From: a virus
Taxonomy: Duplodnaviria > Heunggongvirae > Uroviricota > Caudoviricetes
Virus record (IMG/VR): IMGVR_UViG_2526164667_000029
Strand: one strand, 5' to 3'
DNA: 36,097 nt
Shown: positions 7,225 to 35,295 of the stretch, one piece after another
Layout of the letters: the number at the start of each line of letters is the position of its first letter
Numbering within the stretch: the stretch's first letter is position 1
The notes under the pieces: model-generated
Told to the model about the DNA's origin: nothing
Seen by the model: the letters and a program-made list of their open reading frames with translations, nothing else
Databases searched by the model: none
Position numbers and translations under genes: made by a program

Positions 7225-8184
7225 ATGAAAATTTGTATCGACGACGGCTCCACCAACATCAAGCTGGCATGGACTGAGAACGGCGAACGCCGCAACGCCA
7301 TCAGCCCGAACAGCTTCAAGTCGGAATGGTCTGCGCCGTTCGGTGGCACGCAGCCCGCGAACTACATGCTTGATGGCGTGCGCTATGGTTTTGATCCGGT
7401 CAGCGATCGCTTTGTCCAGACGACCGACACGCAATACCAATACAGCGATGTGAATGTCATTGCCATTCATCACGCGCTGGTCAAATCAGGCATCACACCA
7501 CAGGAGGTGGATGTGGTTGTCACCCTGCCACTGAGCGAGTATTTCGACACAAACGCACAGCCGGACATAGCCAACATCAACCGCAAAAAAGCGAACGTTA
7601 TGCGCCCGGTGGAGTACCAGAACGGCGAAGCATTCACTATCCGTAACGTGCGGGTTATGCCTGAATCCATTCCGGCTGGCTTTAAGGCACTGGCTGACAT
7701 GAGTCCGTTTGAATCCCTGCTGATTGTGGATTTGGGCGGAACCACGCTGGATGTGGCAAAGGTTCAGGGGCAACTGGCAGGTATCAGCCAGGTGTTTTGC
7801 GATCCACACGTAGGCGTTTCTCTGATGGCCGATGCCGTACTGGCGGTGATGGCCACTAACGGTATGCGCACCAGTCACCACATCGCCAATACCATTATCG
7901 AACATCGCCATGATGAAGCCTGGCTGCGCCAGCACATCCACAATGACGCGCATTACGCCAGCCTGATGGCGGTTATTCGTGAAAAGGAAGAAACACTGAA
8001 ACAACGCGTGATCCGCGCGCTGGCGGTTTTTTCGGGTTACGGGCGGGTGATGGTTGTCGGTGGAGGGGCGGAGATTGTGGCACCCGCTATCCGCGAAGCC
8101 TGCGGAGTTAATGCGACTTTCATCGCGGACGGGGTGCCACAGTTTGCTCTGGTTAATGGGCTGTACGCAATGGACAAGGAGTAA
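7225..8184 (+). CDS. parM: ParM actin-like segregation ATPase (type II partition)
   Basis: N-terminus MKICIDDGSTNIKLAW plus ISPNSFK, YSDVNVIAIHHAL and C-terminal LVNGLYAM closely parallel plasmid R1 ParM (remembered MLVFIDDGSTNIKLQW...). Confidence 0.85.
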   Translation: MKICIDDGSTNIKLAWTENGERRNAISPNSFKSEWSAPFGGTQPANYMLDGVRYGFDPVSDRFVQTTDTQYQYSDVNVIAIHHALVKSGITPQEVDVVVTLPLSEYFDTNAQPDIANINRKKANVMRPVEYQNGEAFTIRNVRVMPESIPAGFKALADMSPFESLLIVDLGGTTLDVAKVQGQLAGISQVFCDPHVGVSLMADAVLAVMATNGMRTSHHIANTIIEHRHDEAWLRQHIHNDAHYASLMAVIREKEETLKQRVIRALAVFSGYGRVMVVGGGAEIVAPAIREACGVNATFIADGVPQFALVNGLYAMDKE

Positions 8185-20148: not shown

Positions 20149-22281
20149 ATGAGTACCACAACACGAAAATTTAAAACCATTATCACTGATACTGGTGCCA
20201 AAAAATTAGCTCAGGCAGCCGCGCCAGATGGTAATCCTGTCCGCCTGACTCACATGGCCGTGGGCGACGGTGGCGGCACGTTGCCCACACCAGACAGTAA
20301 GCAGACCCGTCTGGTGCATGAGGTGTGGCGACATACTGTTAATCGCGTCATCCTGGACGCAACACATCAGAACCGCATTATTGCGGAGCTGGTTATTCCT
20401 CCTGAAACGGGAGGATTCTGGATCCGGGAAATTGGTGTGTTTGATGAGCACGGCGATTTAATCGCGGTGGGCAATACTGCCGAAAGTTACAAGCCAGCCG
20501 TTGCCGAAGGGTCCGGACGTGCACAAACATTTCGCACCATTCTGACAGTATCCAGCACTGCCACCGTGGCGCTTACCGTGGATAACACCATGGTTATGGC
20601 CACAGTGGATTACGTGGATAACAAACTGAAAGAGCATGAACAGTCACGACGTCACCCGGATGCCTCGCTGACCGCAAAAGGCTTTGTTCAACTCAGTAGC
20701 GCCACTAACAGCGATTCTGAAACGCTGGCTGCAACGCCGAAAGCGGTTAAGGTCGCGTATGATCTTGCTAACGGAAAATATACAGCGCAGGATGCCACAA
20801 CAGCGCGAAAAGGCCTTGTCCAGCTTAGTAGTGCAACCAACAGTACATCTGAAACGCTGGCGGCAACATCAAATGCAGTAAAAGCTGCCTATGACAATGC
20901 TGAAAAACGTCTGCAGAAAGCTAAGAATGGTGAGGATATCTCTGACAAAGACACCTTTACGAAAAATATCGGTGCCTGCCGTGCATATAGTGCAGAGCTG
21001 AATATTGGTGGAGATAGTGAAGCATGGACAACTGCGCAGTTGATTTTTTGGCTAGAGAGTCAGGGGGCATTTAACCATCCTTACTGGATGTGCAAAGGCT
21101 CATGGGCTTATGCAAGTAATAAGGTCATTACAGATACAGGTTGCGGAAATATTTGTCTTGCAGGTGCTGTTGTGGAAGTTATTGGCACCCGCGGCGCAAT
21201 GACCATACGCATTACCACACCGAGTACATCCAGCGGTGAAGGCATCCCTAATGCTCAATTTACTTATATTAATCATGGTGATGCTTATGCTCCTGGCTGG
21301 CGAAGGGACTATAACTCCAGGAATAAGCCAACAGCATCAGAGATCGGGGCGTTACCGTCAGATGGGACAGCAGTATCGTCAGTTAATCTGGCTTCAAAAG
21401 GTCGGCTGACCGCCCTGACAGATAATATGCAGGGGGCCACAGGTCTGGAGTTATACGAGGCGTATAACAACGGATATCCAACAACGTATGGAAATATCAT
21501 TCACCTGAAAGGGATGACAGCCGTTGGCGAAGGTGAGTTACTCATCGGCTGGAGTGGTACAAGCGGTGCTCATGCTCCGGCATTTATTCGTTCACGACGG
21601 GATACGATCGACGCAAACTGGTCGCCGTGGGCGCAGCTTTACACCTCGGCTCATCCTCCTGCAGAGTTTTATCCAGTCGGTGCACCAATCCCGTGGCCAT
21701 CAGATACCGTTCCGTCTGGTTATGCCCTGATGCAGGGGCAGACTTTTGACAAATCTGCATACCCGAAACTTGCAGCCGCTTATCCGTCAGGCGTGATCCC
21801 TGATATGCGTGGCTGGACGATTAAGGGCAAACCTGCCAGTGGTCGGGCCGTATTGTCTCAGGAACAGGACGGCATAAAATCGCACACCCACAGCGCCAGC
21901 GCATCCAGTACGGATTTGGGGACGAAAACCACATCGTCGTTTGATTACGGTACTAAAACGACCAGTTCATTTGATTACGGCACAAAAACCACAAATAGCG
22001 CAGGAGCTCATTCACACAATATACCTGTTGGTCACACTGGCGCGGGGAATGGTGTATCAGCCGGTTATAACGCTGCGTTAGGTACTGGTACCACGTCGAG
22101 CGCAGGAGAGCATGCTCACAATGTATATATCGGTGCCCATAACCACACTATCGGCATTGGTGCTCATGCCCATTCTGTCATTATTGGTCCCCACGGACAC
22201 ACCATCACCGTTAATGCTACGGGGAACGCAGAAAACACCGTAAAAAACATCGCATTTAACTATATTGTGAGGCTTGCATAA
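20149..22281 (+). CDS. H: Tail fiber protein (gpH-like) with a mosaic C-terminal receptor-binding region
   Basis: N-terminal about 270 aa nearly collinear with remembered P2 gpH, including the duplicated [19 protein letters not shown] motif; C-terminus carries [10 protein letters not shown] x3 and multiple HxH motifs. Confidence 0.9.
21918..21998 (+). repeat. Tandem ~30-bp coding repeats inside H ([10 protein letters not shown] x3)
   Basis: Near-identical consecutive units ending in ttgattacgg. Confidence 0.6.
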
Positions 22282-22859
22282 TGACATTCAGAATGAGTGA
22301 ACAATCACGGACCATAAAAATTTATAATCTACTGACCGGAACCAATGAGTTTATTGGTGAAGGTGATGCATACATTCCACCTCATACAGGTCTGCCTGCA
22401 AACAGTACCGATATTGCCCCGCCAGATATTCCGGCTGGCTTCGTGGCCGTTTTCAACAGTGATGAGGCATCGTGGCATCTCGTTGAAGACCATCGGGGTA
22501 AAACGGTTTATGACGTGGCATCAGGGGACTCGTTATTTATTTCTGAACTCGGTCCGTTACCGGAAAATGTTACCTGGTTGTCGCCGTATGGAGAGTATCA
22601 GAAGTGGAACGGCACATCCTGGGTGAAAGATGCAGAAGCAGACAAACTATTTCGGATAAGGGAGGCGGAAGAAACAAAAAACAGCCTGATGCAGGTAGCC
22701 AGTGAGCATATTGCACCACTTCAGGATGCTATAGATTTAGATATTGCGACGGAGGAAGAGACATCGTTACTGGCTGCATGGAAGACATATCGAGTATTGT
22801 TGCATCGTGTTGATACAACAGTAGCAGCAGATATTGAGTGGCCAGTCGCCCCACAATAA
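22281..22859 (+). CDS. G: Tail fiber assembly chaperone (gpG/Tfa-like)
   Basis: 192 aa directly after H, start overlapping the H stop. Confidence 0.8.
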
Positions 22860-22864
22860 AAAGA

Positions 22865-22895
22865 AAAAGCCATCGATAGAAATATCGATGGCTTT
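22865..22895. terminator. Bidirectional intrinsic terminator between convergent G and the acetyltransferase gene
   Basis: Inverted repeat aaagccatcgata-gaaa-tatcgatggcttt with A/T runs on both sides. Confidence 0.6.
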
Positions 22896-22902
22896 ATGTA
22901 CT

Positions 22903-23508
22903 CTATTTATACAATACAGCACCGCTCTTTTTAGTTATATATGTGCAGTTCGATGGTATATCTTTATTTATAAAAGACATTGCACCTATTTTTACATTAT
23001 CCCCAATTTTACGGGATAATCCAATGATGCAACAATTAGCTCCGATATCAACGTTGCTACCAATTTTTACTCTTGAACCAGGTATGTCACCATCTATCTG
23101 TCCAATGGTCGTATTCTGTCGTAACACCAGATTTTCACCAGCATCAACAGCAAAATGAACAACAATTCCAGCATGATGGGGAATTGTTAACCCTTTTCCA
23201 ATATTTGCGCCCAATCCAATTTCACAACCAAATTTGTTAATTATTTTACTGTTTAACTTTTTGGCTGCTTTCTTATGTAATTTATTACCATTAATATACA
23301 TTTCGTTAGCCAACCGCCACCAGAAAAGGAAATTCCGGTTACGCTGTTTTTTCTCTCTTAAAAGCCTCCAGATATCCATACGTTTCCGCCGAATTACTTC
23401 ATATTTCCAGAAGTTTTTTAAATTAGTAGAGTTCCCAAATAAAACAAAGTGAATTGCCATTAAGTAAGACAGCACGATAATCTCCTTAATTATTATTTCA
23501 GACGACAC
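22903..23508 (-). CDS. Hexapeptide-repeat (left-handed beta-helix) acetyltransferase, CysE/WcaB-like moron
   Basis: Hexapeptide pattern IGKGLTIPHHAGIVVHFAVDAGENLVLRQNTTIGQ...IGSNVDIGANCCIIG...IGDNVKIGAMSFI; strongly AT-rich compared with flanking phage genes. Confidence 0.75.
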   Translation of the reverse strand: MSSEIIIKEIIVLSYLMAIHFVLFGNSTNLKNFWKYEVIRRKRMDIWRLLREKKQRNRNFLFWWRLANEMYINGNKLHKKAAKKLNSKIINKFGCEIGLGANIGKGLTIPHHAGIVVHFAVDAGENLVLRQNTTIGQIDGDIPGSRVKIGSNVDIGANCCIIGLSRKIGDNVKIGAMSFINKDIPSNCTYITKKSGAVLYK

Positions 23509-23631
23509 ATATTATAAGGTTAAGAGATTATAAAATCCTGTTGTTTGTTATTCAAAAACAATTTTCTGAGAAGGACATACAACAGCAAGTCGCCAGTCAC
23601 CTTCATCAGGAAATTGGCGACATACGTTAAA

Positions 23632-24126
23632 TCAGAGCAGCCCCTTAACTGAGCTGGTCGCGCTATTAAGGGATGATGTCACCTTATCTTTGAAGCCGGA
23701 CAACATATCGCTGAACGATGAGGATTGCAGGCGCTCCCGCAAATCCTCATCACAGCGTTCAAGAGTCAGTGAAAATTCTATCTTTTTCGCCTTACCGTAG
23801 CGATCAAACTCGGAACGGGTCGTATTCGTTCCGGTCAGGACATACATGCCGTAAATCTGCCCGACGCCATCAATCAAAGGCCAGGGTCGTCCTGTATACG
23901 CCTGCGTGGTCAGCAGCGACAGCGACACTTCGCCACCTGTAATTTCAGGATAAAGCACACCAGAAAGAACGATGCGATCATCACCTGCACCGATATACTG
24001 CCAGCTTGCTGAACGGTTAACGCGTTCATTTTTCACATGCCGCCAGCTTTTGTTTTGCTGTAACTGCTGATGCGGCAGCGTGCGCAGCTCAAAAACAAAC
24101 ATGCCGTAGATCATCATCATGGCCAT
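23632..24126 (-). CDS. U: Tail protein (P2 gpU-like)
   Basis: 164 aa immediately downstream of the tape measure gene on the minus strand. Confidence 0.7.
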   Translation of the reverse strand: MAMMMIYGMFVFELRTLPHQQLQQNKSWRHVKNERVNRSASWQYIGAGDDRIVLSGVLYPEITGGEVSLSLLTTQAYTGRPWPLIDGVGQIYGMYVLTGTNTTRSEFDRYGKAKKIEFSLTLERCDEDLRERLQSSSFSDMLSGFKDKVTSSLNSATSSVKGLL

Positions 24127-24132
24127 GACTCC

Positions 24133-26976
24133 TCAATCTTTATCGTAAAAACTGCCACGCCCGGCACGGGCGCGCCGTTCCATTTCTGCCCTGACCATTT
24201 CACCGACCAGTTTCGCCAGTTCGCGGGGATTCTGCGTAACAACGTTATGCAGATGAACATGAATTTCACCACCAAATTCGGAGGCAACAGGCTCCCGGTT
24301 ACGGGAAGTTACAGGAACTGATGCCACTGGAGATCGTATAGCCTCCGCCACCGGGCGGGAGCTGGCCGCAACAACAGTGACCAGCGCCGGAGGCAGCGGA
24401 GCCGGGACCACGGGTGTGATATTAATTGCGGGGGCAGGCTTACTGACCTGCGCAATCTTCCGCTCCTGCCACTCCCCACGAACAGCAAGTGCCCGGGGCA
24501 GGTTTTTAAAGACAATATCGCCGGGGCCAATGCGTTTTTTCGTCTCCTCAACCAGCTTACCTGTGTTATCAGCAATTTTGCTGAGTCTGCGCAGCGTACC
24601 GGTATTGCTGTCTGTGAGCGGTTTATTGTCTTTGGGGTTATCACCTCCGGTGCCATTGCCATTTTCCACAGGCTTCGGCGGATTGATTTTCGCCAGGTCC
24701 CCCTGAAGCAAGGCAACCTTGTCCTGAAGAATGGCCGCACGCTGTGCGTCTTCGATTTTCTTGCGCGCCCTTTCCGCTTCATCCGGAAGCACACCAAGCT
24801 TTTCAAGTATCCACGCCAGCGTATCCAGCAACATTTTTGCAGGTGTCAGAACAAGTTGTAACGCACCGCCAAGAACGTTACCGAATATCTCGCCAGCACT
24901 GGTACATTTATCCAGAGTTTCCTTGCTGGACTCCATCGGTGACAGCAGCGATTTAAACCAGTTAAACACCTGGCTGATCCCACTCCCGATTGCGTCAAAA
25001 ACAGGACTAAACCGTTCAAAGGTTTCGCGCAACGGGGTCAGCCTTTCCATAATCCCGCTGAACACCCCGGCAAAAAATGCCCTGATGGGATCCCAGTATT
25101 TCCAGATAAGAACGGCAGCTCCGGCAAGCGCAGCCACGATAAGACCAACCGGACTGAACAACGCCCCGATAGCGCCTCCCAGCAAAGAAACGGAACCCGT
25201 CACCATTCCCCATAGTGCTGGCAGAACCCTGACAGCATTCATTGATCCGGTCAGGAGGGAAAAACCAAGACGCAGTTTTGCCAGCGGGCCAGCAAGCACA
25301 CCAATAGCCAGCGACAACGAGCCAACCGTTGCAGTCATTGCCAGCAGTGCACCGCCTGCAATCAGTAGCTGGCGCGTCAGTGCGGGATGGGCCTGCGCCA
25401 GCGCCGTCACCTTTGATACCACACGCGTGAGCCACTGCGTGACAGAACGCAGCGGACCGTCAATCAGATCTGCAATGCGGATGCGCAACCCTTCCCATGC
25501 ACTGCTGAGTGATTTCAGATCGCCGTCAAGGTTGTTGGCCATAACCTTTGCCGTGCGTTCAGCCTCACCGCGCGCACCTTCAAGTTCTTTTCTCAGTTTG
25601 GGTAAGGAGCCGTCACCTGCCGCATCAACGAGGGCCATAAATGATGTGAAAGCCTCTTCTCCGGCAATGTCCTTAAAGAACGATACCCGGTCAACTTCCC
25701 CGTATTTGCGGGTAGCTTTATAAAGGTCAGCCAGCACATCCTCCATCGGACGCATTTTGCCCCCGGCATCCGAGACAGACACGCCAAGCTCTTTCAGCGC
25801 CTCTGCTGCCGCCTTTGGCGGTGATGCCAGACGAGCCAGGCTGGCACGCATTGCCGTCCCGGCATCACTCCCTCTGATACCCATATTCGCCAGCACGCCC
25901 GCCATCGCTGCGGCCTGCTCCAGCGATATTCCCAGCTTGCCCGCCACCGGACCTGCATATTTCATGGTTTCGCCCAGTGCGCGAAGGTCAGTGTTGGTAC
26001 GGGTAAATGCTGCGGTGAGCGTGTCGCCAACCCGGTCCATCTGGTCAGCAGAAAGGCCGAACTGCGTCAGGATATTTGAGCCAATATCCGCCGTCTCGCC
26101 GAGATCCATGCCGCCAGCCGTTGCCATGCTCAGCACGCCCGGAAGCGCAGCCTGAATGGCCTGCGGAGTGAAGCCAGCCATTGCAAGAAATGCCTGCCCA
26201 CTGGCGGCATCGCCTGCGGTGAACTGCGTTTCAGAGCCAAGTTTTAACGCCTGCTCACGCAGCGCCTTAAACTGCGGGCTGTTTTTGTCGATTCGCGTCA
26301 GTGCCTGAACGCGGGACATCTCTTTGCCGAACCCGATCGCAGGCTGTAAAAAACGCCCGGCAGCATAGCCGCCAGCCGCTGCCGCACCAATTGCCAGCGC
26401 ACCACCTGTTTTCAGTTTTCCCGCGGTTTCCTGCACGCGCGAATACCGCTCACGCGCCCGCGTTACACGCGCAAGCGCCTGCCGTTCGCGTTCAAGCTGG
26501 TTGTTGTACTGTTCGGTGCGTCTGATGGCCTGCTGGATGGTGTTATCGCTGCCTGTCAGGGAAATGCCGTGGCGTTTCAGCTCTCCGCCAAGCTCCCGCA
26601 TTTTCTGAATTTCCCGTGTGCGCGATTCATTCAGGCGTTCAAGCCGGGTGCTTAACTGCTGCATCAGCTTTTGTTGTTTTTCGCTGAGCACTGTACCCGT
26701 GCGTTGTAACTGATTAAGGGCGTTAAGCTGGCGTCGTGCTTTCACGATACCCGCATCCGCTTTACTGACAGCGTCGCGGGCGCGCTCAAATGAACGCGCC
26801 TGACGCTCGAGATTTTTGATCGCCCCCTGCGTTCGCTGGATGGAGTCACCAAACTGCCCCATCAGGCGGCGGGCGTTTTCGGCAGGCCGGGTCAGCCTGT
26901 CAACGGCGCTGAAAGCGACCCGGATATCAAGAGTCTTCATTGTCTGCATTCCCGCTGCGAAGTGCCGCCCGCTCAC
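24133..26976 (-). CDS. T: Tail tape measure protein (gpT-like)
   Basis: 947 aa, Ala/Gly-rich with coiled-coil-like N-terminal part and hydrophobic stretches; exact start uncertain. Confidence 0.85.
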   Translation of the reverse strand: MSGRHFAAGMQTMKTLDIRVAFSAVDRLTRPAENARRLMGQFGDSIQRTQGAIKNLERQARSFERARDAVSKADAGIVKARRQLNALNQLQRTGTVLSEKQQKLMQQLSTRLERLNESRTREIQKMRELGGELKRHGISLTGSDNTIQQAIRRTEQYNNQLERERQALARVTRARERYSRVQETAGKLKTGGALAIGAAAAGGYAAGRFLQPAIGFGKEMSRVQALTRIDKNSPQFKALREQALKLGSETQFTAGDAASGQAFLAMAGFTPQAIQAALPGVLSMATAGGMDLGETADIGSNILTQFGLSADQMDRVGDTLTAAFTRTNTDLRALGETMKYAGPVAGKLGISLEQAAAMAGVLANMGIRGSDAGTAMRASLARLASPPKAAAEALKELGVSVSDAGGKMRPMEDVLADLYKATRKYGEVDRVSFFKDIAGEEAFTSFMALVDAAGDGSLPKLRKELEGARGEAERTAKVMANNLDGDLKSLSSAWEGLRIRIADLIDGPLRSVTQWLTRVVSKVTALAQAHPALTRQLLIAGGALLAMTATVGSLSLAIGVLAGPLAKLRLGFSLLTGSMNAVRVLPALWGMVTGSVSLLGGAIGALFSPVGLIVAALAGAAVLIWKYWDPIRAFFAGVFSGIMERLTPLRETFERFSPVFDAIGSGISQVFNWFKSLLSPMESSKETLDKCTSAGEIFGNVLGGALQLVLTPAKMLLDTLAWILEKLGVLPDEAERARKKIEDAQRAAILQDKVALLQGDLAKINPPKPVENGNGTGGDNPKDNKPLTDSNTGTLRRLSKIADNTGKLVEETKKRIGPGDIVFKNLPRALAVRGEWQERKIAQVSKPAPAINITPVVPAPLPPALVTVVAASSRPVAEAIRSPVASVPVTSRNREPVASEFGGEIHVHLHNVVTQNPRELAKLVGEMVRAEMERRARAGRGSFYDKD

Positions 26977-29631: not shown

Positions 29632-30852
29632 TGTAGATTCAATCTGTCAATGCAACACCCCTTTCAATTATCTCTTTCGGTGTTTTGAACTTCAGTGTCT
29701 TTCTCGGTCTGTTGTTTAGCTGAGCAGCAACCAGATCTAGTTCATGTTGAGTATATTGGGCAAGACATGTCTTTTTAGGAAAGTACTGCCGAATTAGCCC
29801 ATTTGTGTTCTCATTTGTTCCCCGCTGCCAAGGACTCTGAGGATCGCAGAAGTAAACTTTAACGCCGGTGCTGACAGTAAATTCTAGATGTCTGGCCAGT
29901 TCCATTCCTCTGTCCCATGTCAGTGATTTTCTGAGTTCTGACGGTAAACTCAGGAATTTGTCGGTAAGAGCCTGATTTACTGAGACAGAATCTTTGCCCC
30001 TGAGTCTGAGGATGATCGTATAACGTGATTTTCGGTCTACAAGTGTGGCTATATGAGAGTTTTTTGTACCTGAGACTAAATCGCCCTCCCAATGCCCCAG
30101 AGAGCGTCTGTTATCGATATTTCGGGAACGTTCGTGAATTGGTGTTCCGTTCACTATGTTAATCGTACCTCTTTCGCCTTTGCGGGTATGACGCCTGCCA
30201 TGGCGAAGGCTATGCGACCGTCGCAGATGCTGTATATTCAGGTGGTGTAGCGCTTCACGGCTACGAAAGTACAGCGTTTTATAAATTGTCTCAGGTGATA
30301 TTCGCAGCGTTTTTTGACGTGGTTTTGTTCGCCTTAACCATCCTGATATTTGCTCTGGAGACCATTTCATCTCCAGCTTTTCCAGAACAAGCTTTCGCAA
30401 TGGTAAATTTTGATCCAGTAAGCACGGTTTTGGCCTTTTCGCCATTCTGTTGGCTCGGTTATTAGCATCAACAGCTTTGTAATAGCGTCTGCCCCGATTA
30501 CGCTGAACTTCACGTGAGATCGTCGAAGGACTGCGATTCAGCGCAGTAGCTATCGCACGAATGCTCATTTTGGCTGACAAACCAGCTCGTATCTCCTCGC
30601 GCTCAGACAGTGTCAGGTGAGCTACAGCCCGCTTACGCTCATGGGGTTTTATGCCGCCAGTATCCCTTAACATAGTGAAGATCGTTCCGGGTTTTGAACC
30701 CAGGATATTCGCTATTTCACTGAAGCCTGTTCCGTTCTTCCATAGTTCAAAAACAGAGGCTTTTTCCTCTGCTGTAAATGTTCGTCTCATTCAAAAAACC
30801 TCCGCAACCCCATGTTTTCACATAACTGTTGCGTTGACCAATTGAATCTACA
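29632..30852 (-). mobile_element. IS30 insertion sequence (complete, about 1221 bp)
   Basis: Terminal inverted repeats TGTAGATTCAAT..GTCAA.GCAAC at both ends; 2-bp flanking direct repeat CT; one 383-aa transposase ORF. Confidence 0.9.
29639..30790 (-). CDS. insI: IS30 transposase
   Basis: 383 aa with N-terminal HTH and a DDE-type catalytic core; fills nearly the whole element. Confidence 0.9.
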   Translation of the reverse strand: MRRTFTAEEKASVFELWKNGTGFSEIANILGSKPGTIFTMLRDTGGIKPHERKRAVAHLTLSEREEIRAGLSAKMSIRAIATALNRSPSTISREVQRNRGRRYYKAVDANNRANRMAKRPKPCLLDQNLPLRKLVLEKLEMKWSPEQISGWLRRTKPRQKTLRISPETIYKTLYFRSREALHHLNIQHLRRSHSLRHGRRHTRKGERGTINIVNGTPIHERSRNIDNRRSLGHWEGDLVSGTKNSHIATLVDRKSRYTIILRLRGKDSVSVNQALTDKFLSLPSELRKSLTWDRGMELARHLEFTVSTGVKVYFCDPQSPWQRGTNENTNGLIRQYFPKKTCLAQYTQHELDLVAAQLNNRPRKTLKFKTPKEIIERGVALTD

Positions 30853-31855: not shown

Positions 31856-32491
31856 TTAGCGAGCTAATATATTCAAAGAATTTAACAATTGAGTGTCGAG
31901 TGTTTCAGTTGCAGGAATCGGTAATCCATTCGCAATGCGGTAATTTTTCACAGACAGCCTTGTGGATGGCCCCATTATGCCGTCAATATTTCCGTTATAA
32001 AATCCCCTGTCCAGCAATGCGAACTGAACTCGCATAATCAATCGCTTACGTTTCTCTGCATCAGAAGCAAGCCCATTACTCGTACGGTTAACCTCTGAAG
32101 TTCCAACAGAACTCGTGTTAGTGGTTCTATTATTATCGTTAGAACGAAGTGCACGCACCGAGGAAGAGGACGATGAGGAACTTGCACCTGAACTTGAAGA
32201 ACCAGATGAACGTGGTGAGCTGTATGTTTTTGGATAATAGGGGGTACTTCCACCATAGTATCCACCACCTGATGAGGATCTATGAGAGCTATGGCTCCTA
32301 TGAGAGCTATGGCTTCGATGCCCTGCGATATAAAATGGGACTTCCGTGTTAAGTGGAGCTATCACTAAATCATGCTCATTAAGAGTCATACCAGGTAAAT
32401 CACTCGCTCCTGTAGATGAATCGCTTGCCCATACAGAATTGTTGAGAGCCAAAAATCCCGGAAGTAGAGCAGCAAAATTAAACTTTTTCAT
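31856..32491 (-). CDS. hxsA: His-Xaa-Ser repeat protein (HxsA-like): signal peptide, HxS repeats, Ser-rich linker, peptidoglycan-binding-like C-terminus
   Basis: Signal peptide MKKFNFAALLPGFLALNNSVWA; repeat HRSHSSHRSHSSHRS; Ser-rich tract; C-terminal RVQFALLDRGFYNGNIDGIMGPSTRLSVKNYRIANGLP resembles a PG_binding_1 domain; start overlaps the stop of the upstream rSAM gene (ATGA); ORF track extends to 32569 in the same frame. Confidence 0.7.
   Translation of the reverse strand: MKKFNFAALLPGFLALNNSVWASDSSTGASDLPGMTLNEHDLVIAPLNTEVPFYIAGHRSHSSHRSHSSHRSSSGGGYYGGSTPYYPKTYSSPRSSGSSSSGASSSSSSSSVRALRSNDNNRTTNTSSVGTSEVNRTSNGLASDAEKRKRLIMRVQFALLDRGFYNGNIDGIMGPSTRLSVKNYRIANGLPIPATETLDTQLLNSLNILAR
32276..32320 (-). 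repeat. 18-bp tandem DNA repeats encoding the His-Xaa-Ser repeats of HxsA
   Basis: Plus-strand ctatgagagctatggct repeated about 2.5 times. Confidence 0.6.
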
Positions 32492-33600
32492 AAAATTGGT
32501 CTCGGTGATTGATGAAAACGGCCTTTTGAGGAACTGAAATAGCCAGCACAGGAAGGCTTCTGAGTACATTCATCACATTCTTTTGGATAGTAATTTTTCC
32601 AATCAGAGATCGACTGAACAGCAAGCTCCCTAGCCCTTTCAGGAAGATAACACAAAGGATAATTAAAAATTGTCAGAGGTATGCCTGACCTGTATGCAGC
32701 GTCTATGGCAGAGATTATTTTCTCACTATAACTACTGTGATCAATGAAGATGGTGGACCAGTTTTTTCGTGCCCAACCGATAGGCTCCAACCCCATAAGG
32801 GAAATCTGATTGATGTTGGAGAACACACGGCCAGCGAATTCTACAATATCATCCAATTCGGTATAGTTAGCCAGTGTAGGAATAACTCTAAGTTCGATAT
32901 TAATCCCCAAGTTTCCTGCATTGATTAACCCTTTAACCGTTTCATTAAATGCGCCATCACTCCCTACCAGATGATCATGCACAAGTGGTCTTGATGAGTA
33001 GAGCGGGATACCAAAGGTGATTTTGATCTTTTTGCTTCGCTTTGCCATTTCCTGTGTAAAGTTGATATCAGCAAATTTGCGTCCGTTTGTTAAAACATGT
33101 AAAGCAGTATCTGGTGAATTCTCGATGATAAAATCAATGAAGTGAAGGAAGTCATCCCCATATAGCAAAGGTTCACCACCGCTGACCCCAACAACTCCGT
33201 TCAAGCCAAATGAAGCTATAGCAAGAGCTGATTGGGTAAGTAGCCAGTCATCATTTATTTTCTTTGGTGGCTGCGAACAAAACAGACACAAGTTATTGCA
33301 GCGTTCCGTAACTAAGACAGTATTATGATTGGCTTTGCGTGACAGAATAACGCGTATCATATTGCCATTGTTGATTATCCCAATATCTCCATCTTCAATT
33401 GACTCAAATAATTCAGTGCTAATAACAGAGAAATCAAAGCATGGTGGAATGGCATCATTATTGCCTTCAGCAACTACTAGCAAATTGGGCAAAAAGAATA
33501 AAGGGTTCACTGGTTTTTGTTTGCATAACCGATAGAACCCCGTGGGCACGTTCTCTGTAGAAGCAAAATGAAAGATATCGTTCCTGATAACCTCAGACAT
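32488..33600 (-). CDS. Radical SAM maturase with C-terminal Cys-rich (SPASM/twitch-like) region, HxsB/HxsC-type
   Basis: 370 aa; CxxxCxxC motif CNNLCLFC; GGEP motif VSGGEPLL; C-terminal cysteines in CYLPERARE...CDECTQKPSCAGYF; 8-nt overlap with the upstream gene. Confidence 0.75.
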   Translation of the reverse strand: MSEVIRNDIFHFASTENVPTGFYRLCKQKPVNPLFFLPNLLVVAEGNNDAIPPCFDFSVISTELFESIEDGDIGIINNGNMIRVILSRKANHNTVLVTERCNNLCLFCSQPPKKINDDWLLTQSALAIASFGLNGVVGVSGGEPLLYGDDFLHFIDFIIENSPDTALHVLTNGRKFADINFTQEMAKRSKKIKITFGIPLYSSRPLVHDHLVGSDGAFNETVKGLINAGNLGINIELRVIPTLANYTELDDIVEFAGRVFSNINQISLMGLEPIGWARKNWSTIFIDHSSYSEKIISAIDAAYRSGIPLTIFNYPLCYLPERARELAVQSISDWKNYYPKECDECTQKPSCAGYFSSSKGRFHQSPRPIL

Positions 33601-34981
33601 ATGCCCATCCTTTTAGCATCTCAGCCTTCGAACCACCCTCTGAGATGCAGTTCATCAGATACCTGAACATCCCCTTGTGATATTGACAAAACGTTGAACG
33701 ACTCCTATCACCGACAGGCTCACCCTGTACACTTATGTTCTGGCATGGATCTGAACCACAAAATGGTTGATATGCACATGTATCACAACCTGGCAGAGCA
33801 AAATTGAACGATGAACTCAATACTGCGTTATAGTAAGGACTATCAGAAAATGATAGCGTCTTAACTTCACCCGCACTGAACTCCGTTTCAGGATTCACCT
33901 TCTGCAACATACGGCTCTCATCGCTACCATATACTCGACCGTCATAATTGAAAAGAATACTGTTAAGCACGACTCCACTTGGAGACTTTAAATCCGCATA
34001 ACCACTAAAACCGGGATTGAAGATCCTTTTCAGATGAATGGAGGCCGAATGTTCCACAACCCTTATCCCTTCATTATTAATCTTAAGGATTTCATCTATC
34101 AACGAGGCATAGAAGCTGAAGTATTCGTCCATAGAAAAGGTGAAAGAAGCTTTTTGTGCAAACCCATAGGGACTAACAGGTCGGATAAACATGTCCTTGA
34201 GACCAAGAGACAAGTGAGCCTGAACAATCGATTCAGGACGTTTGATAAGCTCTTTAGTAACTGTAGTAACCGTTGCAACGCGGCCAGCACCTAAAGAGTG
34301 TTTGATAGCCTCTACCCCTGACACTGTTCTACTGTACGCAAGCCCACGACCAAGAATTCGATTACTGTTGTGAACAACTTCCTCACCATCAAGCGACACA
34401 GAGAACGTTATGTTCCGGTCTCTCGACCATTCAATCATATCCTCATTCAAGACGGACAGACTTGATGCCACCACCATCTCAAAATTGGTTCTTCCCAGCG
34501 TTTCAGCACATTGATCATAGATGCTCTGAATTAAATCAAACCGCAAGAGAGGCTCCCCACCCTGTATCTCTATTTTGTAAGGTGGCGTTGATAGTTTTTT
34601 AATAGCCGAAATAATATCGGGGATGAGCTCAGGATTTAGGTCGTAACCTGAGGCATTAACAGAAGCTCTACTAACCTGGCAATACTTGCATGTATGGTCA
34701 CAACGTAATGTGGGTACAATCATGAAAATTGGCCTGACAGCCAGTTCATTCATCAATCGTTTTGCAAAAGCAGAACTTAAAGCATAGGGAGTTATAGCAG
34801 ATGAGCTTTCACTGGTTATGAAAAGCTTACTTTCTAGCACGTTTGATTGCTCCGAACTAATTCGCTCATCAGAAAGATCAATAAGGTCTTGCTCACCAAT
34901 GAAATGATGAAAACCTGCAAGGTTGCTTATAAACACCTGTCCATTAGGCAATCTGTCAAAATTAAATGGCATCAATTCCAT
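33593..34981 (-). CDS. Radical SAM maturase with N-terminal extension and C-terminal Cys-rich region, HxsB/HxsC-type
   Basis: 462 aa; CxxxCxxC motif CDHTCKYC; GGEP motif IQGGEPLL; C-terminal cluster PGCDTCAYQPFCGSDPC; start overlaps the hxsD stop (TAATG). Confidence 0.75.
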   Translation of the reverse strand: MELMPFNFDRLPNGQVFISNLAGFHHFIGEQDLIDLSDERISSEQSNVLESKLFITSESSSAITPYALSSAFAKRLMNELAVRPIFMIVPTLRCDHTCKYCQVSRASVNASGYDLNPELIPDIISAIKKLSTPPYKIEIQGGEPLLRFDLIQSIYDQCAETLGRTNFEMVVASSLSVLNEDMIEWSRDRNITFSVSLDGEEVVHNSNRILGRGLAYSRTVSGVEAIKHSLGAGRVATVTTVTKELIKRPESIVQAHLSLGLKDMFIRPVSPYGFAQKASFTFSMDEYFSFYASLIDEILKINNEGIRVVEHSASIHLKRIFNPGFSGYADLKSPSGVVLNSILFNYDGRVYGSDESRMLQKVNPETEFSAGEVKTLSFSDSPYYNAVLSSSFNFALPGCDTCAYQPFCGSDPCQNISVQGEPVGDRSRSTFCQYHKGMFRYLMNCISEGGSKAEMLKGWAYV

Positions 34982-35295
34982 TATGAAAGCCTCTCATCAA
35001 CACTGCGAAGCACTTTATGGACAATAGAGTCTCTCAACGCCCCTGTTTTATGCTGTAGCTTTTCTCGCAAAGAGTAATCATTAAGCAGCCTATCGAATTC
35101 ATAAAGGAATTTGGGATTATCGTTTTCAAAAGAGATTATCCAGTGGGAAACGTCTTCATGGAGTTTCCATCGAGTAAGCGGAGTCATCCAATATAGACTA
35201 TTGCGTATAACCCATTCAGAATATAGTTCTTTCTCAAACACTCTTTCGCTCATTGCAATTATCTTCCAATACAAATATTCATGATCAGCAACCAC
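34981..35295 (-). CDS. hxsD: HxsD-like small protein (LLNDYxLRE signature)
   Basis: 104 aa containing LLNDYSLRE, the motif that names the TIGRFAMs HxsD family (as I recall it); first gene of the operon. Confidence 0.6.
   Translation of the reverse strand: MVADHEYLYWKIIAMSERVFEKELYSEWVIRNSLYWMTPLTRWKLHEDVSHWIISFENDNPKFLYEFDRLLNDYSLREKLQHKTGALRDSIVHKVLRSVDERLS

Follow-up and report, generated by a model that had tools for sequence, protein, structure and literature searches.

An acetyltransferase gene between G and U of a P2-like prophage

The window analysed here, the 36,097-nucleotide IMG/VR virus record IMGVR_UViG_2526164667_000029 taken at its full length, is an Escherichia coli P2-family prophage (Peduoviridae, P88/Xuanwuvirus-like) adjoining ihfA-pheST. 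The subject of this study is a gene on its minus strand, lying between the tail-fibre assembly gene G (tfa) and the gene U, whose product is an acetyltransferase of the hexapeptide type that may act on a glycan of the cell envelope. The region around this gene matches several E. coli chromosomes at 100% identity; around gpD, a complete match was found only in strain 7_33_46A, which has IS30 there. The plus strand carries V, W, J, I, H (20149-22281) and G (22281-22859), and the minus strand carries FI, FII, E, T (24133-26976) and U (23632-24126). The acetyltransferase gene is convergent with G, as an earlier reading made from the letters and open reading frames (ORFs) alone (the sequence-only reading) had it, and is co-oriented with U and T. 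The features of the site are as follows.

22281-22859, plus strand: tail-fibre assembly gene G/tfa, the convergent neighbour (Caudo_TAP, 1.8e-40)
22866-22895, both strands: bidirectional intrinsic terminator common to G (plus) and the acetyltransferase gene (minus) (terminator scan, fold)
22903-23475, minus strand: acetyltransferase gene (ORF, Prokaryotic Genome Annotation Pipeline (PGAP) annotation, AlphaFold2 model, alignments, ratio of nonsynonymous to synonymous substitution rates (dN/dS))
23476-23508, minus strand: non-coding 5′ extension of the earlier ORF call, holding AAGGAG (sequence, starts of P1-like alleles)
23527-23555, minus strand: promoter-like site of the sigma-70 type, TTGAAT-17 nt-TATAAT, agreeing with the consensus at 10 of 12 positions (consensus scan only)
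23589-23621, minus strand: hairpin GUCGCCA...UGGCGAC with a U-rich stretch, after U (RNA fold −26.3 kcal/mol, z = −2.95)
23632-24126, minus strand: U (Phage_P2_GpU, 1.5e-38)
21668-23467: mobile cassette comprising the part of H for the fibre tip, then tfa, the terminator and the acetyltransferase gene up to its start codon (megablast boundaries, annotated contexts)

The ORF at 22903-23508 on the minus strand, translated from the window, had been taken for a real gene, and this holds: dN/dS is 0.07-0.21 among five alleles (dS up to 0.43), the product matches the phage family PHROG 2154, and a protein search returned 336 homologues. The gene is under purifying selection. It is intact (ECs_2638) in the 21-kb prophage Sp13 of O157:H7 Sakai, which is eroded by insertion sequences (IS) and in which the tape-measure gene is a pseudogene, and it is intact in the window too, although IS30 interrupts gpD. 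Its start had been set 33 nt too far upstream. The 190-aa gene occupies 22903-23475 and begins with a GTG at 23475, placed 6 nt after AAGGAG (23482-23487), a strong Shine-Dalgarno sequence; the same GTG is the PGAP start (WP_000954204.1, 190 aa, identical, annotated as “serine acetyltransferase”). P1-like alleles have an ATG at the equivalent codon, and homology stops just upstream of it. The first 11 codons of the 22903-23508 ORF lie outside the gene.

Morons are defined by a promoter and terminator of their own, atypical composition and absence from close relatives. The acetyltransferase gene has a guanine-plus-cytosine (GC) content of 34.9%, and of 30.9% at third codon positions (GC3). H, G, U and T are at 46-57% and the whole window is at 51.5%, so the AT-richness first noticed in the gene is genuine. 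The promoter-like site lies ~50 nt upstream of the start codon, and its hexamers are kept in O157 Sakai Sp13. The 13-bp hairpin at 22866-22895 folds with −21.3 kcal/mol (z = −5.5; 0 of 200 shuffles were as stable), and because its flanks are A-rich on one side and T-rich on the other it can terminate transcription in both directions, as had been proposed. The hairpin at 23589-23621 is a possible weak terminator that would insulate the acetyltransferase unit from the tail operon. Given the foreign GC content, the promoter-like site (predicted only), the Shine-Dalgarno sequence, the terminator and the absence from close relatives, the gene is best described as a self-contained moron, in agreement with the sequence-only reading.

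That reading had also placed the gene at the equivalent of Z/fun, and here we differ. In P2, the cargo slot of Z/fun and tin lies between G and FI; in the present phage group the tail operon from FI to U runs on the other strand, so that the gene is bordered by G and by the 3′ end of U. The G-U junction of P88 (L011, 3823-5971) and of Gemsvirus 500465-2 (L012, 4292-5748) is occupied by a DNA invertase together with a second tfa and an alternative C-terminus of the fibre; PhiR44_2 has nothing at its junction, and all three phages are without the acetyltransferase at this site. The alternative fibre, second tfa and invertase make up a fibre-switching (invertible) segment, whose place the acetyltransferase has taken in the window. 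Since relatives hold either that segment with its invertase or nothing at the site, we regard it as a variable slot for which Z/fun offers a loose analogy and not a strict equivalent.

Protein fold and family placement

In an AlphaFold2 model built on 81 homologues (predicted local distance difference test score, pLDDT, 94), residues 1-82 of the 190-aa protein form a five-helix N-terminal domain (helices 2-82) and residues 83-190 a left-handed beta-helix (LbH), with regularly spaced short strands at residues 84-151. An N-terminal domain of about 100 residues before the repeats had been anticipated; the domain is there, and with the corrected start it is shorter, ~82-85 residues preceding the beta-helix. 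The top 50 Foldseek matches in the PDB were all serine acetyltransferases (SATs), with template-modelling (TM) scores of ~0.7 and, for LbH serine acetyltransferases, a probability of 1.00. In the alignment with E. coli CysE, the counterparts of its catalytic D143 and H158 are E85 and H100; H100 is kept in at least 90% of the 81 homologues, and the E85/H100 pair in 50 of 51 sequences. By its fold and by its catalytic histidine and acid, the protein is a member of the left-handed beta-helix (hexapeptide) acyltransferase superfamily, and the CysE/WcaB-like beta-helix acetyltransferase of the sequence-only reading is recovered by EpsC, CysE and WcaB profiles and by PDB and Foldseek matches alike.

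Named families within the superfamily fit less well. Both Pfam matches were sub-threshold (Hexapep 23.6 bits, below the gathering threshold of 27; Hexapep_2 17.6 bits). The best NCBIfam match, to EpsC (NF041874), scored 74.2 bits against a cut-off of 150; the CysE profiles scored 60.9 against 210.65 bits (TIGR01172) and 35.9 against 397 bits (NF008349), and WcaB (TIGR04016) 51.6 against 194.65 bits, K-12 WcaB being 35% identical over 103 residues only (the beta-helix). The full-length match is to PHROG 2154, a phage family with no assigned function (E = 2.1e-86, with residues 13-190 aligned to positions 3-181 of the 185-position profile). In E. coli CysE, serine is bound by D92/P93, D157 and R192-H193, as known from SAT structures. 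The D92/P93 segment is missing from the protein (an alignment gap), D157 aligns with P99, a variable position in the family, and the R192-H193 loop is unconserved, H193 falling in a gap and the R192 position varying across the family. The protein ends (...SGAVLYK) right after the beta-helix, and the CysK-binding isoleucine tail of CysE (...EYGDGI) has no counterpart.

Membership in CysE is ruled out by the scores, the missing serine-binding residues and the lack of a CysK tail, membership in WcaB by the score and by a prophage context instead of a wca cluster, and EpsC, the best match, is still below its cut-off. The missing serine-binding residues, the absent CysK tail and the far-below-cut-off scores argue that the protein is not a serine acetyltransferase, and the database name is very probably wrong. 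The profile search would instead place it in a SAT-like, polysaccharide-type branch of short WcaB/EpsC-like proteins, probably with the same chemistry; scores below the family cut-offs and the prophage and plasmid settings speak against a housekeeping family with a chromosomal context. The N-terminal domain is both basic and aromatic (isoelectric point 11.2, with 20 K/R and 13 W/F/Y in 82 residues), a composition that would fit work at an anionic membrane surface. Four motifs define the family, namely FLFWWRLANEMY, which lies in this distinctive N-terminal domain, IPHHxGIV, IRQNTTIG and IGDNVKIGAMSF.

A cassette with fibre tip and tfa

The cassette at 21668-23467 recurs at 92-94% nucleotide identity in the P1-like phage-plasmids JL22 and vB_EcoM-Ro157c2YLVW, and in pO26_10153_1, which is arranged in the same way, the nucleotide identity of the acetyltransferase is 89%. 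The JL22 block is beside U′/S′ and cin, at the position of the P1 invertible C segment. Among 14 phage-borne variants (IMG/VR contigs, non-redundant at <90% identity), the immediate neighbour is a convergent tfa in 9, and in 11 a tfa is no more than two genes away; a P22-like tailspike adjoins one variant. The identities of acetyltransferase and tfa to those of the window fall roughly in parallel, at 99/97, 88/93, 85/68, 65/46 and 44/38%. Strict linkage to tfa was considered for the family as a whole and rejected, as it holds for the phage-borne variants and for only ~5 of the 79 chromosomal loci, which were taken from one genome for each species. The tight fibre-tip/tfa/acetyltransferase cassette of P2-like and P1-like phages represents a host-range module with its own cargo.

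Two further observations concern these genes. The C-terminal third of H (20149-22281, plus strand) has tandem repeats and a run of HxH motifs resembling the tips of T4 gp37 and lambda Stf-type fibres, and this tip is common to lambdoid phages such as mEp460 and HK630 at ~87-88% identity. A 36% identical homologue on the IncY P1-like plasmid NZ_CP083486.1 (L020:5998-6543) is convergent with, and overlaps, a different tfa; with T and Y in place of the catalytic E85 and H100, it may be inactive or perform another chemistry.

Distribution and gene neighbourhoods of the family

The gene is present in 535 of 5,426 complete E. coli genomes (about 10%), with 71 matching places on plasmids, and carriers include O157:H7, O111, O103, O26-type plasmids, O55:H7 and 55989. 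At the protein level, homologues were found in 487 plasmids, 265 of them conjugative. IncI1/B/O and IncK2/Z plasmids hold a 53-56% identical backbone copy, flanked on one side by a toxin-antitoxin pair that is itself downstream of repA and on the other by a ProQ/FinO-family gene. Other homologues lie at prophage ends, next to what remains of an integrase in Salmonella, on a Pseudomonas plasmid among small unknown genes close to the relaxase, and as a lone gene in Orbus.

Gene neighbourhoods were compared for full-length homologues of 40-65% identity. In L090 and L091, HtrL/YibB stands between the acetyltransferase and tfa (score 359.8, against an NCBIfam equivalog cut-off of 342); its K-12 member presumably lies by the waa cluster for the lipopolysaccharide (LPS) core. 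In L096 and L099, the gene immediately downstream of the acetyltransferase is that of a phage glycosyltransferase (phrog_1962, 4e-98). The positions of these two neighbours are:

L090:1591-2445, minus strand: HtrL/YibB (NCBIfam match)
L096:7161-7889, plus strand: phrog_1962 glycosyltransferase (profile match, 4e-98)

Found downstream of tfa in these other prophages, the pairs with HtrL/YibB or phrog_1962 look like two-enzyme glycan-modification cargo cassettes. An operon of Zophobihabitans comprises a glycosyltransferase family 9 (GT9) heptosyltransferase, a pyruvyl transferase, the acetyltransferase and a GT25 LPS glycosyltransferase, and in an Orbaceae genome a GT9 heptosyltransferase is immediately upstream of the acetyltransferase. 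In Halopseudomonas and Pseudomonas, a Kdo/WaaP-family kinase is paired with the acetyltransferase beside msbA-hldE and a pseudaminic-acid cluster; the kinase match is strong in four loci and a weak, sub-cut-off Pfam match in L139, and six family neighbours are NeuB. Phage-borne and LPS-cluster members interleave in a neighbour-joining tree (no bootstrap). Polysaccharide acetylation, which the sequence-only reading had offered as one possibility, is the function that these neighbourhoods favour most. Separately, in Orbaceae bacterium ac157xtp a second EpsC/WcaB-like hexapeptide acetyltransferase gene (L113:6770-7381, plus strand) lies directly downstream of the family member, beside a GT9 heptosyltransferase, making a pair of tandem paralogues in an LPS-core setting.

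Proposed function and alternatives

We put at about even the chance that the gene encodes a lysogenic-conversion enzyme O-acetylating an envelope glycan, probably the LPS core. O-acetylation of an envelope glycan, taken by itself, is given even or marginally better odds; the LPS core as the specific substrate is a tentative choice that could well be wrong. The enzyme would be cytoplasmic, probably trimeric and dependent on acetyl-CoA, with the fold of a serine acetyltransferase and no production of O-acetylserine. It would acetylate a sugar hydroxyl of the glycan during assembly on the inner membrane's cytoplasmic face, the likeliest acceptor being the LPS core oligosaccharide and an undecaprenyl pyrophosphate-linked unit being less likely. 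The resulting change of the surface would amount to lysogenic conversion, altering or masking a receptor used by phage fibres and by the thin-pilus adhesins of IncI plasmids. Both the substrate and the exclusion phenotype are what we infer.

The fibres of P1, P2 and Mu use the LPS core. The PilV adhesins of IncI plasmids bind LPS core disaccharides (PMC10654706). Because fibres and PilV both read the core, a common logic would be available to the various carriers. A more speculative proposal, to which we give a distinctly minor chance, is that this is a receptor-masking enzyme travelling with adhesin modules: O-acetylation of the LPS core would exclude core-reading fibres of the P2, P1 and Mu types together with IncI PilV adhesins, and phages and conjugative plasmids would share one exclusion enzyme.

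Several points weigh against acetylation of an envelope glycan, probably the LPS core. The fibre tip and tfa of the cassette are also found in lambdoid phages that lack the acetyltransferase, which makes the gene accessory to fibre function, and a tfa neighbour is rare at the chromosomal loci. The receptors of lambda Stf and T4 gp37 tips, which the tip of H resembles, include the protein OmpC. The stretch downstream of tail-fibre genes is a generic hotspot for morons, so that position alone implies no receptor function. Many chromosomal homologues are solitary in uninformative contexts (in Rahnella, for example, between a transporter and a GGDEF protein), and the members in LPS clusters are only 40-48% identical to the window protein, a distance at which substrates can shift. 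To our knowledge, there is no report of O-acetylation in the LPS core of E. coli, and we know of no characterised LPS-core acetyltransferase of the LbH type. In the literature, we found annotations only and no biochemical or genetic work on any family member; the gene is not mentioned in a transposon-sequencing (TnSeq) study of pESBL, and the reason for its presence has been stated to be unknown (PMC9603915).

The alternatives that we considered fare worse on the same evidence. A single-gene anti-phage defence, or an anti-defence or competition factor, would acetylate a small-molecule signal, a nucleotide sugar or a component of an invading element; like many defence genes, the gene is solitary and AT-rich, has its own promoter-like site and is found on prophages, phage-plasmids and conjugative plasmids, the same prophage has another cargo island (HxsABCD, below), and the small unknown genes around the Pseudomonas plasmid copy would suit such a role. 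We nevertheless hold it improbable, as the protein matched no PADLOC model (0 families of PADLOC-DB 2.0 at E ≤ 1), has no conserved partner or effector gene, and has glycan enzymes as its informative neighbours. That the enzyme might instead acetylate its own tail fibre or Tfa chaperone, as part of the host-range cassette, is suggested by a tfa linkage that persists over 44-99% identity in P2-like, P1-like and lambdoid phages, by co-orientation with the late tail operon in the window, and by P1-like phages, where inversion would have the gene read together with the alternative fibre (the inversion point being inferred). The strong terminator and the opposite strand separate it from fibre and tfa, however, lambdoid phages manage with tip and tfa alone, close homologues occur in IncI/K backbones and LPS clusters without fibre genes, and we know of no LbH enzyme that acetylates proteins; we consider this reading quite unlikely.

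Mobile-element LbH enzymes also include xenobiotic acetyltransferases of the CatB and Vat types, and carriage on many resistance plasmids, together with a paralogue that has a weak CatB match, would suit an enzyme detoxifying a hydroxyl-bearing xenobiotic, antibiotic or bacteriocin. Against this stand the nearest branch, which is SAT/WcaB/EpsC and not that of the xenobiotic acetyltransferases, the absence of any CatB or Vat match for the window protein in the profile search at E ≤ 0.01, and the position of the plasmid copy in the backbone next to repA and toxin-antitoxin genes, outside the resistance regions; the probability left to detoxification is small. The smallest of all, in our estimate, goes to a genuine serine O-acetyltransferase acting as an auxiliary metabolic gene that boosts cysteine/O-acetylserine synthesis. 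The PGAP name serine (O-)acetyltransferase, the CysE enzymes as nearest solved structures and the conserved catalytic pair speak for it, but both CysE profile scores, the lost or unconserved serine-binding positions and the lacking isoleucine tail set out above all run counter to it, as does occurrence on mobile elements or in LPS clusters.

If LPS-core acetylation is correct, this would be the first LbH-type LPS-core O-acetyltransferase, and it would imply a previously unreported O-acetyl modification of the E. coli LPS core in ~10% of complete genomes, O157:H7 included. The misleading name “serine acetyltransferase”, which is given to it systematically, hides a probable surface-modifying function. 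Acetylation of the core or of another envelope glycan could affect phage host range and the outcome of phage therapy, the ability of cells to act as recipients of IncI-type resistance plasmids, and the serology and innate recognition of Shiga toxin-producing E. coli (STEC).

Other cargo and the state of the prophage

A 383-aa ORF at 29639-30790 (minus strand) of the window is the transposase of the IS30 copy, which lies inside the late-control/tail gene D (annotated as VgrG/Pvc8 family and “late control D”). Owing to this insertion a tail defect is probable in the prophage; an IS30-free form of it is present in strain PV0838. Between gpD and ogr, at ~31856-35250 on the minus strand, an HxsA/C/B/D cluster (a His-Xaa-Ser repeat peptide with two radical-SAM maturases) forms a second cargo island of the same prophage, its coordinates being derived from the ORFs at 31856-32569, 32488-33600 and 33593-34981 and from the PV0838 annotation. 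After the replication endonuclease gene, a ParM-like gene (7225-8184, plus strand) and a short next gene represent plasmid partitioning/stability functions, annotated as stbA and partition protein in O157 Sakai Sp13; such genes are unusual for an integrated P2-like prophage and hint at a plasmid-prophage lifestyle or ancestry. Genes for hok/gef-family toxins are found at the ends of these P2-like prophages, at 32035-32175 of L001 (the end of the window prophage, beyond ogr) and at 4662-4802 of L003-L008. In a second type of prophage, an acetyltransferase homologue (P0029) directly follows hok, at the prophage-chromosome junction beside a P-type heavy-metal ATPase gene.

Comparison with known systems

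The P2 Z/fun-tin slot and the slot in the window are both variable cargo positions of P2-family phages that directly follow the tail-fibre assembly gene; in the window, however, the slot is between G and the 3′ end of the opposite-strand tail operon, and the acetyltransferase gene has no sequence relation to Z/fun or tin. CysE is the nearest solved fold (TM ~0.7), with the last helices of the N-terminal domain and the beta-helix aligning and the equivalents of D143/H158 kept, whereas ~100 N-terminal CysE residues (D92/P93 among them) are absent from the window protein. Proteins of the WcaB/EpsC type resemble it in size (162-190 aa), in a short helical N-terminal segment joined to a SAT-type left-handed beta-helix, in the catalytic acid/His pair and in an “HH” motif, and for all of them the expected substrates are glycan intermediates in the cytoplasm. 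They differ in that the window protein has a distinct, longer and very basic N-terminal domain with FLFWWRLANEMY, falls below both cut-offs, and is encoded by a solitary gene on mobile elements, outside a wca or eps cluster.

Among phage-borne enzymes, the Oac proteins of Sf6 and phiV10 are integral-membrane Acyl_transf_3 proteins acting on O-antigen. As in the role proposed here, they acetylate a surface glycan in lysogenic conversion and block superinfection, whereas the window protein is an LbH enzyme, soluble or peripheral, with no tie to a single O-serotype. A closer parallel is NeuO of prophage CUS-3 in E. coli K1, which is likewise a prophage-encoded LbH O-acetyltransferase carried as cargo, and whose gene presumably sits beside a receptor-binding gene, as the window gene does. 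NeuO comes from a different LbH branch and has a heptad poly-psi domain that the window protein does not; it is absent from the 37 PDB sequence matches (E ≤ 0.01) and from the Foldseek top 50. No tandem repeats were found in 22800-23700 at a minimum score of 30, which argues against phase variation of the NeuO type, and hosts of the window gene are not confined to K1 strains. NeuO acetylates the capsule glycan targeted by K1 phages and thereby gives protection against phage (PMC3046976; PMC13001214), and it serves as the functional model and established precedent for the window gene.

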